A stretch of 64,000 nt of DNA from a bacterium (lineage in GTDB: Bacteria; Electryoneota; Electryoneia; Electryoneales; Electryoneaceae), in contig OY769902.1 of NCBI GenBank assembly GCA_963669175.1, positions 4,160,001 through 4,224,000 on the forward strand, given 5' to 3'. How positions within the stretch are numbered: position 1 is the stretch's first letter; each line of letters begins with the position of its first letter. The translations under genes and the position numbers were made by a program. The notes under the pieces are model-generated. The model saw only the letters and a list, made by a program, of their open reading frames with translations. It had not been told where the DNA came from and made no database searches. This document shows, in pieces, positions 6,414-59,353 of this stretch.

Positions 6414-6621
6414 TTAGCAGGCTTTAGCCTGCTCTTCTTAGCACCCGGCTTTAGCCGGGGTGTCAAGGATAAAAAGAGAAATAATGAGCGCCCTTCAGGG
6501 TGCTTTCCAGCGAAAAGCTTGCTCACCTGAAAGCACGCTAAAGCGCGCTCCAACTTGTCTGGCATCCACTCCACCCCGGCTAAAGCCGGGTGCTAAAAAG
6601 AGCCTGCTGAAGAAGGCTGAA
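6414..6621. repeat. REP/REPIN-like palindromic element family B, copy 1
   Basis: Nested hairpins gcaggctttagcctgc, cccggctttagccggg ... cccggctaaagccggg, gcctgctgaag(c/a)aggc. Confidence 0.85.
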
Positions 6622-18591: not shown

Positions 18592-18694
18592 CAACCCCTC
18601 CAGGGTTGATATAATAGCTATTCTGATACCCCGGGTGCGTGCCAAACAGACGGCACGTACCCGGGGCTCACTTATCCAACTCCTGCGGAGTTGC
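18592..18694. repeat. REP-like family C (GCCAAACAGACGGC-loop hairpin)
   Basis: ccccgggtgcgtgccaaacagacggcacgtacccgggg plus caactcctgcggagttg; inverted homolog at 22809-22899. Confidence 0.8.
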
Positions 18695-46512: not shown

Positions 46513-46944
46513 ATGACACCCATTCGTGTACTGCTCGTGGATGATGAACAGGATTTCACCGAGATCCTGTCGGAACGGTTGATCACGCGTGGCATGCTGG
46601 TTGATGTTGCCAATGAAGGTCAGGAAGCGTTAAAACTCGCGGGGGAACGTACCTATGACGCGGTCGTCCTCGATCTGCAAATGCCCGGCATGGACGGCAT
46701 CGAGACGCTGAAACGTATGGTTCGACTCAACAGCGACCTTCAGGTGATCCTCCTGACCGGACACGGCACCCTGGACAAGAGTGTTGAGGCCATGAAATCT
46801 GGTGCGATGGAATTCCTCGAGAAACCACCGGACATGAATATCCTGATCCAACGCTTGAGCGAAGCCAAAACCACACATCGTGAGCTTTCCGAGAAACGCA
46901 TGGAAGACACTCTCGGCGGTATCATGAAAAAAATGGGGTGGTAG
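46513..46944 (+). CDS. Single-domain response regulator
   Basis: VLLVDDE, DLQMPG, LTGHG, EKP. Confidence 0.92.
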   Translation: MTPIRVLLVDDEQDFTEILSERLITRGMLVDVANEGQEALKLAGERTYDAVVLDLQMPGMDGIETLKRMVRLNSDLQVILLTGHGTLDKSVEAMKSGAMEFLEKPPDMNILIQRLSEAKTTHRELSEKRMEDTLGGIMKKMGW

Positions 46945-47223
46945 CTCTCGCAAGTTTGAAAGTTGGAAAGTTACAAAGTTGTAAAGTTGAAAAGTTATCG
47001 GGTTGCCTGGTATCAGCTAGCATTGGCAAGAGTGTTCTGGGGAGCAGATACGCCTAGGCGCACTATCCAAGGATTGTTGAAGAATTGATCACGGACTTAT
47101 CGAAATTTGAATACAGTAAAACATGCGACACTATTGTCGTTCCTGAAAGTCTTTATCGTTTCATGTTGGCGGCAGCTTCTTTCGGACACTGGACATTTAT
47201 CTTTTCTAGGGTCTGCTTCGCCC

Positions 47224-47327
47224 TGATTGCACCTCCTGATTGCACCTCCTGATTGCACTCTTTGATTGCACCTCCTGATTGCACCTCCTGATTGTACTCT
47301 TTGATTGTACTCTTTGATTGCACTCTT
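47224..47327. repeat. Eight 13-bp tandem units (tgattgcacctcc / tgattgyactctt)
   Basis: Directly visible. Confidence 0.9.
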
Positions 47328-47350
47328 TCGAAAGTATATATTTATTTGTT

Positions 47351-47964
47351 TTAGCAGGCTTTAGCCTGCTCCTCTTAGCCCCCGGCTTTAGCCCTGTCTC
47401 TTGCTCACATCTTCGTGTTTCTGCCACCCCAGAGGGGGTGGTATATTTTTTCGTAGGGTTGACGCTGTCTGTTTAGCGTCTACCCTACGAAAAAGATCAA
47501 ACCTTATCTCAACCCTGGAAGGGTTGCATAACGTATAATTTACACCCAATTGGTTTGTATAGAATATAAAATGCGTTATTTCCTGTATTTATTGAACGTA
47601 CTAATATGAATCGCGTATTATGCAACCCTTCCAGGGTTGATTATTCGTTAGAATACCTGACATAGTGTACAGGCCAAACAGACGGCCTGTACACTATGCT
47701 AAAATAGGGAATCCCGCCGGGATTCTAAAAATGCTATGTCCACAACTCTTTTACTGATACAGCTTTCAGAAGATGTGGGTAAGAGACAGGGCTTTAGCCG
47801 GGGGAACAAGGACAACAACGACTCGAGCGCCCTTCAGGGTGCTTTCCTGATTCGTATGGATTCTATGACGTTAAAGCACGCTAAAGCGCGCTCATAGCTT
47901 TTGTTATATCCATCCACCCGGCTAAAGCCGGGTGCTAAGAGGAGCCTGCTGAAGCAGGCTAAAA
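47351..47964. repeat. REP-like family B copy 3, interrupted by a MITE
   Basis: Same hairpins as 6414-6621 once 47394-47799 is removed. Confidence 0.85.
47394..47789. mobile_element. 396-bp MITE with IS50/Tn5-like 19-bp ends and duplicated target GGCTTTAGCC
   Basis: CTGTCTCTTGCTCACATCT ... AGATGTGGGTAAGAGACAG; GGCTTTAGCC at 47384-47393 and 47790-47799. Confidence 0.85.
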
Positions 47965-48113
47965 ACTTTTGAATCAGTAAAACTTTTGAATCAGCAAAAA
48001 CTTATGAATCAGCAAATACTTATGAATCAGTAAAAACTTTCGAATCAGCAAAAACTTTTGAATCAGCAAATACTATCGAATCAGCAAAAACCTTCGAATC
48101 AGTAAAAACCTTC
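47961..48113. repeat. About 8.5 tandem 17-18 bp units (aaaaacttttgaatcagc)
   Basis: Directly visible; begins at the REP right end. Confidence 0.9.
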
Positions 48114-48275
48114 GAGACCCCATATTTTTTCAAGAAACAGTATCTCAGAAACAGTATCTCAGAAACCCTTTGTTCCTGTCACGAAAATCCAACCATCTCC
48201 AACTCAACCCTTGTCCCTTCCGGCTGAACATGCTACGTTTCGCAAGGTCCGAAATCCTTGTGAGGAATAGCCCGC

Positions 48276-51200
48276 ATGAAACGATTCGCGTTCATCCTGT
48301 TGCTTGCTTATTGTATTCCTTTATTGGCGGCGGATACGAAGTATCCAGTGACGTATTATCGTGCCGTTGATTCGCTACGCACCAATCTTGTCGCGGATTC
48401 CCTGTACCGTTACGCTGACTATGATCAGCAGATGAAACACTGGGAACGTGCGGACACGCTGGCGCAAAAAGGCCTGGCAACGCTCGATACGCTGCAGAAC
48501 CTGCTGGACTGGACTTACCGTGGCAGCGATGAAGCGATTGCTGCGGCCATGTTGGGCATGCGTGTCGCGGTAATAACCCGTCCCATGGGGAAACCGGAAC
48601 TGAACAGAATCGAGTTTCACAATCCTGCGACCGATGAATTACTGATTGTTTACGATCCGGCGCCCTGGCTGGTTGATGAGACCATCGGCTTTGTACAAAC
48701 TGATAAAAACACGACCATCTTTGAAACCTGGCCCAAGGTTGACGGCTACCGCGTTACTACGTTTTCCCATTCACGTCTGGATGGCGGTTTCCAGGTAATT
48801 CGTGAAGGTCGCACCATCATCCGTGCCCTTCCGGACAAACGTGACCGCATCTGGCTACTCGAATATGACGCTGACCAGACTGTACATCTGGTACTATATA
48901 ACGCAGACTCAAAACGCTTCGCCCAGGTCAAGACATTCCATGAATACAGCCCGTTAGCTTTCAAACCGCCATCACGCGCTTATAATGACGGCTGGGTGTT
49001 GATTGACATGGATGAGCTGTATTTCCTCGACCCGCTTGCCGGACGTTGTGACAAGCTGATGAATCTGCCCTTTATCGCTGTGAGCGAAGATCAGTTTTCC
49101 GGCTGGACCTTCAGCGCCATGCGTGACAACGATTTGCACCTGCTGAAGTTCAAACCGCGTCCCCCGGTGTATAAACATGTCATCTTGCCAGACGCTATCC
49201 CTGCGGAACGAAACGGCCTTTCCGCCAAGGTCAATGACTTCGGCGCCTACCTTGCCAATGTGCAGGATGACAGTCTTTCGCTGTACAACATTCTGGGCGA
49301 TGAAGCTTCGCTGGAATCTCGTCATTCCGCGTTACGACGTCATGGTTTCATGCTGCTTGACGGGCTTGAGTGGTTCGGACACCTGCTGCTCCATTACGGA
49401 CGTAATGGTCTCCGGGTTTACAACGGCAGCAACCTGATTTTCGCGGATAGTGCCAACGGGGATCAGGTTGGTGTCATTGAACCGTTGGAAGGAATGCTGT
49501 GGGCGCATCGAGCGCCGGATTTCCTGTACTGTGTGGACTTGAACACAAAAGACACGCTGTGGCATTCCTCGCTGAAGCTCTCCCCCGCACGCCACATGGC
49601 CCGGCTGAATGATGGCTGGCTGGCGCTGAATAACAACTATCTCGATTACCGGGTGGTTGATTTCGCCAACGGAAACGAACTGTTACGTCAACCTGTACCC
49701 GGCCCGATGGTGTTTTCCTATCTGCCACTGGATGAAAGTGTGCTTTTGAATGGTCCGGGTGGCGCTTTCCTGCGGTATTTGCCGATCAGACGTGATCTTC
49801 GCGCTGACCTTGTGGAACTGCGCGCACGTGGGCTCAATGTCCTCGGTGACACCACGCAGGCGCTGGACCTCGCTACTCAAGCCTTCATCCTGGGTGAACC
49901 GTTGAAGGAATGGGCTCACAACGGTCTGCTGAAACGCTACAAAGGGCAACGCCTGACTCGTGAAAGTCTGCAATTTGTGGGTCAGGCAGCAATCCGTACC
50001 GGTGATCCCGGCTGGACAAAAATTCTGAACCGTGGCGGGGCGGAGTTCTTCTCTCCTGCGGTTTTGAGTGGGTTCAATCATTTGATCCCCACGGGCAAAG
50101 GTGTGATGGCCATGCCTTCCCTGACGCCGAAAGATTACCTGACCGGCGAATATGGCTGGCATGCTTCGTTTGTCCTTGGTCCGAAATTTGACAGCTATGG
50201 CGAATTACAGCAGCGTTTCCTGACCAGCTATGCCATCCAGATTCCTGATGGATATATCCTGTTCTCTTTCGAACGTCGCAGCCAGAACCGTCCGGTTTAT
50301 GATGGTCTGGCGTGGTTGTTGAACTCATCCGGCTCAATCAAACCACTGGGCAAGCTGGACATTGCCGCCTTGTCCGAACAATTCCCCCCCAGCAGTGACA
50401 TGGTCGCCGGGGGAATTGTGCCCACATTGTCCAATCCCGATGGGGACAAGATCCTGGTCAACTTCTGGCGTTTCGGCTTCAGTGAAGATGTCCATCCCCT
50501 GTTCACAGCGTGCATCGACCTGACCGGCGGCGGGAAGAACTGGACGGATACGACCTCCGTATCACCGGTGTTTGCCGGAGGACAATGGTACGCTCATGAG
50601 ATCAGCGGTGAAGAAATTGTGTACGTAGCACCGCATGGTCAGGCAGCCCGGGCGGACATGAGAACCGGCGATATTATCCGTTCGGTCAACGGATACCCTG
50701 TCATGGCCTGTCAGCGATACAGCGACCTGATCGCAACTCTACCGCGCGGCGCAACCTACACTGTTCAGGTTGAATCACCCAAGGGTGAGCAATACACCGC
50801 AGAGTTGGTGAAGAGTTATACCGGCTTTGAGTCGCTGCCAGAACAGACACTGGTTGAATTAAACCAGAAAAATGCTACCCATTCCAATCCGATGAAACTG
50901 CCTGCCGGATACCTGTTGATGGCAGCCAACGAAGATGGCCACCTGGTGTACAAGTACCAGGACAGCCTGCTGTTCGTTGATCCGGTAGCGCAGTCCATGC
51001 AACGAGTGACTCTACCGGGTATCTCAGACACGGACCTCCTGACAAGTCCGGGCATGTATGATATCGCTGTGTTCGGGAATCCATCAGCGGGACGCTTCCT
51101 TGGTATCAACCTCGCTGCCAGCGCTGTGGATTCACAACGAGTTGTCTGGCGGAAAACATTTGGACCGTTGCGTAATCTACCCCCGCTAAATGAAGCGGCA

Positions 51201-51476
51201 GATCGTTTCCCGGTATTGCTGAACGATGGTACCCTCCTGCTGATCAATCCTGTGGACGGCGCAGAAGTAAACCGTACTCAGCTTCCCTTCGCGGCATGGA
51301 TCGACCGGACAGCATTGCTTGGAAATACGTTCTACGGATCCATCGAAGGTCGCATCCTCGGCTGGAACATCGCATCCGGTTCCGCCGCTTCTCCGGTCCT
51401 GTTCCTGCTGATTGGCGCTGGTGGTATGCTGGCGCTTTGCCTGGTGGGGATGGTGCTGATGCGGAAACGGGGGTAA
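48276..51476 (+). CDS. Large exported protein with PQQ-like beta-propeller segments, PDZ-like domain and C-terminal TM anchor
   Basis: Signal peptide; AARADMRTGDIIRSVNG PDZ pattern; hydrophobic tail plus RKRG. Confidence 0.75.
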   Translation: MKRFAFILLLAYCIPLLAADTKYPVTYYRAVDSLRTNLVADSLYRYADYDQQMKHWERADTLAQKGLATLDTLQNLLDWTYRGSDEAIAAAMLGMRVAVITRPMGKPELNRIEFHNPATDELLIVYDPAPWLVDETIGFVQTDKNTTIFETWPKVDGYRVTTFSHSRLDGGFQVIREGRTIIRALPDKRDRIWLLEYDADQTVHLVLYNADSKRFAQVKTFHEYSPLAFKPPSRAYNDGWVLIDMDELYFLDPLAGRCDKLMNLPFIAVSEDQFSGWTFSAMRDNDLHLLKFKPRPPVYKHVILPDAIPAERNGLSAKVNDFGAYLANVQDDSLSLYNILGDEASLESRHSALRRHGFMLLDGLEWFGHLLLHYGRNGLRVYNGSNLIFADSANGDQVGVIEPLEGMLWAHRAPDFLYCVDLNTKDTLWHSSLKLSPARHMARLNDGWLALNNNYLDYRVVDFANGNELLRQPVPGPMVFSYLPLDESVLLNGPGGAFLRYLPIRRDLRADLVELRARGLNVLGDTTQALDLATQAFILGEPLKEWAHNGLLKRYKGQRLTRESLQFVGQAAIRTGDPGWTKILNRGGAEFFSPAVLSGFNHLIPTGKGVMAMPSLTPKDYLTGEYGWHASFVLGPKFDSYGELQQRFLTSYAIQIPDGYILFSFERRSQNRPVYDGLAWLLNSSGSIKPLGKLDIAALSEQFPPSSDMVAGGIVPTLSNPDGDKILVNFWRFGFSEDVHPLFTACIDLTGGGKNWTDTTSVSPVFAGGQWYAHEISGEEIVYVAPHGQAARADMRTGDIIRSVNGYPVMACQRYSDLIATLPRGATYTVQVESPKGEQYTAELVKSYTGFESLPEQTLVELNQKNATHSNPMKLPAGYLLMAANEDGHLVYKYQDSLLFVDPVAQSMQRVTLPGISDTDLLTSPGMYDIAVFGNPSAGRFLGINLAASAVDSQRVVWRKTFGPLRNLPPLNEAADRFPVLLNDGTLLLINPVDGAEVNRTQLPFAAWIDRTALLGNTFYGSIEGRILGWNIASGSAASPVLFLLIGAGGMLALCLVGMVLMRKRG

Positions 51477-57996: not shown

Positions 57997-58050
57997 TGGC
58001 ACCTCCATTGTTGGGTATGATTTTGAAAAGTAAGAAGCATCGTTCTGATT

Positions 58051-59353
58051 CACTGCTGTCCGGTTAATTGAGCATTGTTCTTGATTGCTGTTTTCGTTTT
58101 TGTTTTTCGATATCGCTTGTTCTTTGAAAGTCTTGCCACGCTTTGGCTACAGGGATACAGATCAGCAGATGTGTGCTGATAAATACCAAGAGTTGATGAG
58201 TAGTGATTGCCTCGTCGGCGTTCTTTTGCAACACTCTTAGCAGGAGAAAGACGATCATGGCAACCCAGATTTGCGACATCACTGCATTTTCGGATGTCCC
58301 CAGAAAAGACTTGATTTTCAGGTTCTGTTTCACCCATTTGAAGAACAGTTCAATCTGCCAGCGTTGCTTGTAGAGCTGCGCAATGGTCAACGCGTCTATT
58401 TCCAACAAGTTTGTCAGAAACCACAATTCCTTTTTTGTTTCCGGATCGGTGAAGTGTACCAGGCGCAAGGGATCAGGATAGTGGTCTGCCGGGGTTCCGT
58501 CAAAATGACCAATCCAGTCACCACGGACACCTGTTCCGGCTTCCACCTTTCGTTTTTCGGTCCATTCAAAGCCGACGTTGCTTTTCATGCGTGTGACGAA
58601 AAAGGCCTGGTTGCGATTGATCCTGGCAAACCAGGCGCTGTCGAAGTAGCCACGGTCAACCAGATAGGTTGTGCCTGACGTAATGGGCATGGTTCGCGCC
58701 GCCCCGATATCGCTGACCTTGCCGTCGGTGATGACAATGTCTTGTGGAATAAGCCCGTCATGATCCAGTAGGGTGTGCAGTTTCAGAGCACCTTTTGTTG
58801 TGCGGTATTTTGCCCAGGGCAACCGTTCCAGGCATACCGGAATCAGCGTGCTGTCAAGCGAAAGAAGTTTACCGGGAACGGGAAAATCATGCTTGGAAAA
58901 CCTGTCACAGAAAAGGGCGAATAATGCCTGAAACAGTTCGTAGTAAAATCGCCAGTTAATCCGCTTGTTCGCTTCTGCCAGGGTCGACTTCTTTACATTG
59001 ACCAAGGGGTCCATTGAGAACAGGGATGCCGTTGCATGCTGAATATCGCGTGTCGACTTCAATCCCGCCAACTGTGCGAACATCAGAACCGCAAAATGGG
59101 TGGATGCCGTAAACACAGAGGCATATTTATCAACATGATACTTCGTGGCAAGCTTGTCAAAGAGCTCGTTGGGTACAAGCTTTTGTATCTGCATCAATAC
59201 GGTTGTAGATTGAGCCATGACTTGCATCCTCCGTTGATGAGAATGTGTGTGCAAACTCAATCTTACCAACGGTACCTTGTGATGCAAGTCTTTATTATTA
59301 TACAATCTCCGGGATAGTTACACGAAATCGTGATAACCTACCGGACAGCAGTG
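58051..59353. mobile_element. IS4-family insertion sequence, 1303 bp
   Basis: 14-bp perfect IR CACTGCTGTCCGGT; 9-bp TSD GTTCTGATT at 58042-58050 and 59354-59362. Confidence 0.95.
58064..59218 (-). CDS. IS4 family DDE transposase (DUF4372-like N-terminus)
   Basis: LDST, KLHTL, VDRGY, YKQRWQIELFFKWVKQ (YREK motif). Confidence 0.95.
   Translation of the reverse strand: MAQSTTVLMQIQKLVPNELFDKLATKYHVDKYASVFTASTHFAVLMFAQLAGLKSTRDIQHATASLFSMDPLVNVKKSTLAEANKRINWRFYYELFQALFALFCDRFSKHDFPVPGKLLSLDSTLIPVCLERLPWAKYRTTKGALKLHTLLDHDGLIPQDIVITDGKVSDIGAARTMPITSGTTYLVDRGYFDSAWFARINRNQAFFVTRMKSNVGFEWTEKRKVEAGTGVRGDWIGHFDGTPADHYPDPLRLVHFTDPETKKELWFLTNLLEIDALTIAQLYKQRWQIELFFKWVKQNLKIKSFLGTSENAVMSQIWVAMIVFLLLRVLQKNADEAITTHQLLVFISTHLLICIPVAKAWQDFQRTSDIEKQKRKQQSRTMLN

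Follow-up and report, generated by a model that had tools for sequence, protein, structure and literature searches.

A MITE with IS50-type ends at the hairpin tips of REPINs in a bacterial genome

The stretch of DNA analysed here (the window, 64,000 nucleotides) contains a gene-less element of 396 bp that interrupts a hairpin of a REPIN family denoted B. The element is a MITE derived from the IS50 subgroup of the IS4 family and not a member IS: it lacks the length of 1350-1550 bp and the DDE/YREK transposase of the subgroup, and is therefore a derivative. It is likely that a Tn5-like DDE transposase moved this MITE in trans, and likely also that this enzyme reads a palindromic GC-rich target that the tips of family-B hairpins match best. 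The genome containing the window (G000) is a single contig (C1) of 5.45 Mb that is 95.9% complete.

The element spans 47394-47789 and is a non-coding unit of subfamily 1, recognised by its paired ends and its copies in the genome. Its 19-bp terminal inverted repeats, located by sequence match, lie at 47394-47412 (forward strand) and 47771-47789 (reverse strand), and the window holds two matches to the 19-mers against 0.01 expected. The first-pass annotation had placed both 19-mers correctly, and we confirmed its 396-bp span and the identities it gave to the Tn5 mosaic end as quoted (16/19 and 17/19). The 10-bp direct repeat GGCTTTAGCC is found on the forward strand at 47384-47393, which is the axis of the family-B inner hairpin, and at 47790-47799. 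ORFs entirely within the element reach at most 45 amino acids, in agreement with the earlier description of an interior free of ORFs, and those overlapping it at most 73. That the interior consists of REP-type hairpins was likewise borne out, and hairpins with a AAACAGAC loop do stand elsewhere in the window, at 18640 and 22850. As a single strand the element folds at z = -13. An Rfam scan returned six matches, every one far under the gathering threshold, and scans for promoters (4 against 1.9 expected) and terminators (3 against 1.0 expected) showed weak excesses.

Inside the left end, a GC-rich hairpin followed by a T run (47424-47441, forward strand) is terminator-like by pattern only and is present also in a relic at C1:518119. 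It is followed by the cargo, a putative REPIN of family C (47442-47726, the left boundary being approximate), which was delimited by its fold and by alignment to arms near a Y1_Tnp gene at C1:2672007. The left arm of the cargo has hairpins at about 47452-47489 and 47509-47531 and then an AT-rich spacer, and the inverted right arm has hairpins at about 47618-47640, 47661-47698 and 47709-47725. The right subterminal shell (47727-47770) shows a weak likeness to the shells of mini-elements in two other genomes, G007 and G005 (z 3.9 and 3.6). Two substitutions at 47450-47451 are private to the window copy when it is compared with the majority haplotype of 13 copies, and may be an assembly error. 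They lengthen the adjoining stem, as a template switch would, and the contigs of runs X1/X2 list the majority letters only.

The search for further copies with paired ends and duplications that the first-pass annotation had proposed was productive: matching the ends at up to three mismatches and then pairing them yielded 44 copies in the genome. The target duplication is exactly 10 bp in 36 of these and exact at another length in none; the remaining eight mismatch at 1-3 bases, and one of them fits 9 bp with one mismatch. As some copies have duplications that are not palindromic, the duplication can be fixed at 10 bp and the terminal repeat at 19 bp, so that of the two lengths offered previously, 10 bp or 8 bp, the former stands and the latter falls. 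The uninterrupted family-B hairpins at 6414 and 6987, cited as the empty site, do exist but are paralogues and not an empty allele of the locus. A 151-base record from run X4 that spans the site without the insert was also considered as an empty allele and dropped, as the same flank is common to paralogous empty REPINs. The element has terminal inverted repeats, is short, and occurs in many dispersed copies with identical boundaries, as is characteristic of MITEs; the earlier view that it is non-autonomous holds, with paired ends and duplications at many loci and no transposase inside.

The 42 copies of standard length form 27 haplotypes, 13 copies being identical, whereas two longer copies hold later insertions. 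A second subfamily (n=13, mosaics included) differs at about 40 positions. Mosaics between the subfamilies, at C1:2877998 and C1:3737714, show that copies have recombined, which accounts for most of the unequal duplications, as is proposed for ISRm22 in the available part of PMC1525189. None of the 44 copies interrupts an ORF of at least 150 amino acids. The depth ratio in runs X1/X2 corresponds to about 29 and 11 copies of the two subfamilies, a consistency check and not independent support, since these runs may stem from the source sample; the loose ends among the matches listed in them map to known loci. Unpaired IS50-type ends were noticed at C1:518119, 2154927, 4882417, 1393000 and 140818. 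Four of them adjoin family-C-type hairpins, and they are apparently older relics.

Both ends of the element fit the end pattern of the IS50 subgroup, CW------Y---CA-A--W-, as compared by eye with Table 1 of PMC2266710. Natural ends of the subgroup differ from the left end of the MITE by only 1-2 bases, and the likeness to the mosaic end is hence ordinary IS50 kinship. The Tn5 mosaic end is itself a hybrid of the two ends of IS50. The pattern was found in 6 of 15 genomes of the same family against 1 of 63 others, with none for the reversed control, and the Pfam model of the Tn5 dimerisation domain matched 2 of 79 genomes. A side observation concerns L055:696 (genome G075), where an IS50-like end lies just after a reverse-transcriptase gene, in sequence resembling the 3' end of a group II intron.

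A transposase gene bounded by the same ends, the partner that the first-pass annotation suggested looking for, was not found in the genome: profile searches for an IS50-type transposase with PF14706, PF02281 and NF033590 identified none, and neither did tblastn searches in which two IS50-type proteins served as queries (best E 0.62). The MITE is thus an orphan in this assembly. The enzyme could be encoded on a replicon missing from the assembly, which comprises one contig and is 95.9% complete. Among metagenome contigs, 53 stretches carry the exact end pattern, many of them as single chance-like matches, and none has a transposase match at E 1e-4; viral contigs gave no match to the pattern. 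A similar-ended autonomous element was found in another genome of the same family, G009, which has two nearly identical elements of 1476 bp (L056 and L057) with ends three mismatches from those of the MITE and with an exact duplication of 10 bp on the axis of a palindrome. Their transposase matches Tn5 structures at E 8e-89, scores above the NF033590 cut-off and has the YREK motif, so that in length (1350-1550 bp) and in their single DDE/YREK transposase these elements belong to the IS50 subgroup. The closest named relative of this enzyme, 54% identical, is from Ca. Electryonea clarkiae (L060), and the left end of that element lies within the same family-B hairpin. By this relationship the host probably belongs to that lineage as well. 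In a tree of 15 of the 20 intended proteins the two enzymes group at 91/84, under the support mark of the tool. An IS50-like mover, as proposed earlier, agrees with the type of the ends and with the presence of this element in a related bacterium, and an IS50-type enzyme, missing from the assembly, likely mobilised the MITE. Because the enzyme is found neither in the genome nor beside the 53 metagenome matches, its link to the G009 enzyme is drawn from the 16/19 likeness of the ends.

We then turn to the sites chosen by the MITE. Family-B hairpins hold 24 of the 44 copies, 21 at the inner tip and three at the outer tip, where the sites 3926219 and 4781297 were counted as outer-hairpin by eye and census. 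Sixteen further copies lie in five other repeat types and four in sequence without an assigned type. The first-pass annotation had the element target one REP family. A preference for REP targets among the other copies did emerge, in that most of those outside family B also lie in repeats, but it is not confined to one family, and several copies are off the hairpin axis. A REP-specific IS in the strict sense of PMC1525189 (type 1 of Tobes and Pareja) would have every copy at one position of one REP family; here 21 of 44 share the inner B tip, and the MITE is not such an element.

The targets, of which 34 distinct ones were reconstituted, share a palindromic consensus. In the 36 clean targets a mean of 6.8 of 12 symmetric pairs is found, where random DNA gives 3.0 and a displaced centre 2.3-3.6, and the genome repeats 38 of the 44 target windows at least twice, against 84 of 400 random non-coding sites. 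These figures are what would be expected if the IS50-type mover recognised an extruded hairpin (cruciform) or a REP-bound protein and not duplex sequence alone, an explanation that we regard as rather unlikely as a whole. Shuffling of half-sites favours some role for structure, as the observed pairing of 229 exceeds the permuted 199.5 +/- 9.6 (highest of 2000 shuffles 233), with the caveat that sites within a repeat family are not independent. The occupancy of the hairpins argues the other way: inner B hairpins are occupied in 21 of 98 cases, whereas the perfect outer hairpins of the same REPINs are used seldom when they have the same core with other arms (3/45, p 0.03) and never when they have another core (0/53, p 9e-5). 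Moreover, although 24 of 44 targets have at least 8 of 12 pairs on the axis, 16 have no centre that reaches 8/12 and another four are best paired off-axis. The 17 targets without the B core keep the consensus, 25 of their 34 half-sites having G at +2 and 32 having W at +5. The data are best read as a preference for a palindromic sequence which REP tips match and whose outcome selection has filtered, the insertion sites seen being the survivors of selection. The idea that the length of the duplication follows the parity of the loop was discarded; it fits C1:1655576 (9 bp, one mismatch) and fails at C1:2552806.

Beyond this genome, autonomous relatives, ISEc13 of E. coli among them, likewise insert in GC-rich palindromes. 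Fifty loci are related to the G009 enzyme, and 17 of them have an exact duplication; once a truncated copy, a duplicate site and a contig end had been set aside, 14 insertions were left. In ten of the 14 at least 8 of the 12 possible pairs form, and the duplication, of 8, 9 or 10 bp, has the axis at its centre, a result that could equally be quoted for recognition of a cruciform. ISEc13, a listed member of the IS50 subgroup, speaks against it. Exact duplications were found at 8 of 8 ISEc13 sites in one E. coli genome and at 27 of 28 full-length sites examined in E2348/69, where the lengths are 8 bp (11), 9 bp (9) and 10 bp (7); some sites are common to both strains, and the length is that of the longest exact repeat. 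C occupies -4 in 16/16 and 54/54 half-sites of the two genomes, and -2 in 16/16 and 50/54. In E2348/69 strong pairing is seen at 11 of 27 sites and fewer than 8 of 12 pairs at the other 16, yet all have C at -4. With duplications of 10 bp at 7 of these 27 sites, ISEc13 shows that the range of 8-9 bp published for the subgroup (PMC2266710, Table 1) is too narrow. The preference of ISEc13 lies in arms outside the duplication and that of the MITE mostly in the core inside it, pointing to related but different specificities. The ISEc13 sites (L197-L204, L206-L233) often lie in palindromes that are terminator-like or BoxC-like. Near-full copies of ISEc13 are present in 874 E. coli genomes.

The MITE of the window is the centre of a nest. 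Its host, a family-B REPIN of 208 bp without the insert (47351-47964), is made up of two arms in inverted orientation that each comprise an inner and an outer hairpin, and lies between a tandem array of about eight 13-bp units on its left (47222-47328, forward strand) and another of about eight 18-bp units on its right (47961-48109, forward strand). An outer repeated envelope with degenerate inverted ends (47136-48120) is mostly TA-flanked in its other copies and surrounds many family-B REPINs; with the tandem arrays and the envelope enclosing the host REPIN, the nest has four layers. A REPIN-free copy of the envelope, of about 150 bp, was found near C1:3734660. The envelope is possibly another MITE, for which no partner was found, and by its TA habit it would be IS630-like. 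On either side lie a gene with a response-regulator receiver domain (46513-46944, forward strand) and a gene for 1066 amino acids with a weak PDZ match (48276-51476, forward strand). Short tandem arrays (units of 8-24 bp in the window, also at 46952-46997) repeatedly abut REPIN or RAYT ends, and are likewise found beside the Y1_Tnp genes at C1:2672007, 1503039 and 5361186. A putative IS110-like element encoding 378 amino acids has 12 copies in C1 (e.g. 3525640-3527030) flanked by TATAG-type motifs, and some of these lie in the envelope end of family-B REPINs.

The family-B preference would be inflated if most copies arose by hitch-hiking, in which a RAYT-moved REPIN, the envelope or gene conversion copied the MITE together with its host. 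The copies at C1:4233277 and 4482758 have in common one substitution in the MITE and three in the host, to either side of the insertion, so one composite was likely co-copied. Furthermore, four of the five hosts closest to the REPIN of the window have an insert at the same tip, both orientations being represented, and six of nine paired envelopes contain the MITE. The other B hosts are at least 24 bases apart, whereas their MITEs are near-identical and sit in both arms and both orientations; together with the 20 copies outside family B, this leaves hitch-hiking to explain about 1-3 copies. It is refuted as the main route and, as a general account, improbable.

Host and cargo are both inverted hairpin doublets with matching arms beside a RAYT-like gene and on this ground are REPINs, the Y1_Tnp genes being called RAYT-like from Pfam PF01797 and their flanks. 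Their feet do not read GTAG or CGTC; in families B, C and D the foot is TTAG, a tag absent from the main text of PMC3733652. Of the ten Y1_Tnp genes in the genome, most have hairpin arms of their own, to which dispersed repeat families correspond. Family-B arms flank those at C1:1503039 and C1:5361186, one of which has the MITE in an arm, and one arm of family C is adjacent to its Y1_Tnp gene with the second about 700 bp away. About 285 of the 396 bases of the MITE resemble the arms beside the gene at C1:2672007, by which the cargo appears to be a captured family-C REPIN. Hairpins of the cargo-loop type lie inside MITE copies in 86 of 150 cases, and the exact cargo subtype occurs outside them as two partial relics only. 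From this near confinement to MITE copies it follows that the MITE has amplified the subtype. Other subtypes of the cargo doublet follow three left ends that lack a partner, and no empty shell without cargo was found in the genome. Ten paired mini-elements from other genomes were compared: those of G005 (3), those of G003 (2) and L157 carry doublets unlike this cargo, that of G003 being family-B-like, and the other four carry no doublet, one being an internal deletion of a G009-like element. The G005 cargo is found free in at least five places and the G003 cargo in one. With different REPIN cargos in related mini-elements, capture looks recurrent, as judged from these sequences. Three insertions were noted in passing: a 1312-bp IS4_1-type element that interrupts a hairpin of MITE cargo and has a 9-bp duplication (C1:4494613-4496329), a 474-bp hairpin-rich element in the cargo hairpin loop of another MITE copy (C1:847595-848464), and, in the window, an IS4-family element at 58050-59353 with three near-identical genome copies and ends unrelated to the MITE.

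The resemblance of the cargo to RAYT arms, the ten Y1_Tnp genes and the IS4_1-type DDE genes of the genome might suggest that the MITE is moved by an IS4-family transposase of this genome or by a RAYT that acts on its cargo. This is very improbable: the boundaries of the unit are the 19-bp repeats and not the REPIN arms, those multi-copy DDE elements that were examined end in unrelated sequences and duplicate fewer bases, and their proteins reach about 20-24 bits with the IS50 model, for which the cut-off is 160. An origin of the ends as Nextera adapter remnants or by mis-assembly, suggested by their likeness of 16-17/19 to the mosaic end and by junctions unbridged in the contigs compared, can be dismissed, since the ends are never the exact mosaic end, form inverted pairs 396 bp apart with site-specific duplications that an adapter artefact cannot produce, and occur in other genomes and, as diverged variants, in run X5 of another study.

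Movement by an IS50-type enzyme could be pictured as follows. A short IS50 shell would have taken up a family-C REPIN, probably via RAYT-driven insertion. The IS50 enzyme, possibly of the G009 type, would then have excised the unit at its 19-bp repeats and joined it to target DNA cut with a stagger of 10 bp, in line with the cut-and-paste transposition of IS4-family elements by DDE enzymes (PMC2266710, in the part available). A transposase dimer would read a symmetric site made of an S-rich arm, a GGYTW/WARCC core and a second S-rich arm. REP tips would be hit because no other perfect matches are so common between genes, and insertions within genes would have been lost to selection. Two waves, matching subfamilies about 10% apart, may have preceded the loss of the autonomous element; copies are gained through repair of the donor. 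Gene conversion between copies could have produced the mosaics, the unequal duplications and at least one co-copied unit of MITE plus host.

The main interest lies in the target choice of natural Tn5 relatives and in the recurrent capture of REPINs. Tn5 is the standard near-random transposase. We raise, as a tentative proposal, that its relatives include a broad, overlooked and strongly site-selective branch, with symmetric GC-rich arms, a flexible spacer of 8-10 bp and insertion at REP or terminator tips, whose mini-elements might repeatedly capture REPINs that replace the broken hairpins. If so, REPINs would gain a second, RAYT-independent route of spread. The nest also shows REPINs that spread on board a DDE element, in contrast to the usual view that RAYTs alone spread them. 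Natural Tn5 relatives with sharp symmetric targets and other staggers would offer a direct handle on target selection by this fold, and ISEc13 makes the question testable in E. coli.

Among known systems, of which the sources cited here were available in part, the closest is the IS50 subgroup (IS50R/Tn5, ISEc13), with direct repeats of 8-9 bp and a length of 1350-1550 bp (De Palmenaer et al. 2008, PMC2266710). The MITE shares its 5'-CT ends that fit the pattern, has in L056 a relative with a YREK/DDE enzyme and duplicates about one helical turn, but differs in its lack of a transposase, its 10-bp duplication, its strong preference for palindromic repeats and its REPIN cargo. In the open literature we found no paper on REP targeting by the IS50 subgroup, on IS50-derived MITEs or on the target choice of ISEc13, although ISfinder may record ISEc13 sites. 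Like the prokaryotic MITEs described in PMC10969869, PMC3184786 and PMC3733652, the element is short, non-coding, intergenic, multi-copy and strongly folding, with inverted repeats. At 396 bp it is longer than the 70-300 bp quoted in PMC3733652, and the available parts of these three papers name no IS50-derived or REPIN-carrying MITE. The doublets resemble the REPINs and RAYT REPtrons of Bertels and Rainey (2011, PMC3337134) and Di Nocera et al. (2013, PMC3733652) in their inverted arrangement and in arms flanking Y1_Tnp genes. They differ in having two or three hairpins per arm, closer to the long TIR-type arms of PMC3733652, in their TTAG feet instead of GTAG/CGTC, and in a cargo subtype spread inside a DDE element. 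ISRm22, an autonomous IS4-family element of subgroup IS4Sa with 6-bp repeats and all copies in REPs (Tobes and Pareja 2006, PMC1525189), likewise inserts at the axis of REP palindromes and has some unequal direct repeats ascribed to recombination, whereas the MITE is non-autonomous, derives from the IS50 subgroup, duplicates 10 bp and has 24 of 44 copies in its main family. With ISRm22, REP targeting by IS4-family elements is already published, and each ingredient of the nest has a precedent.
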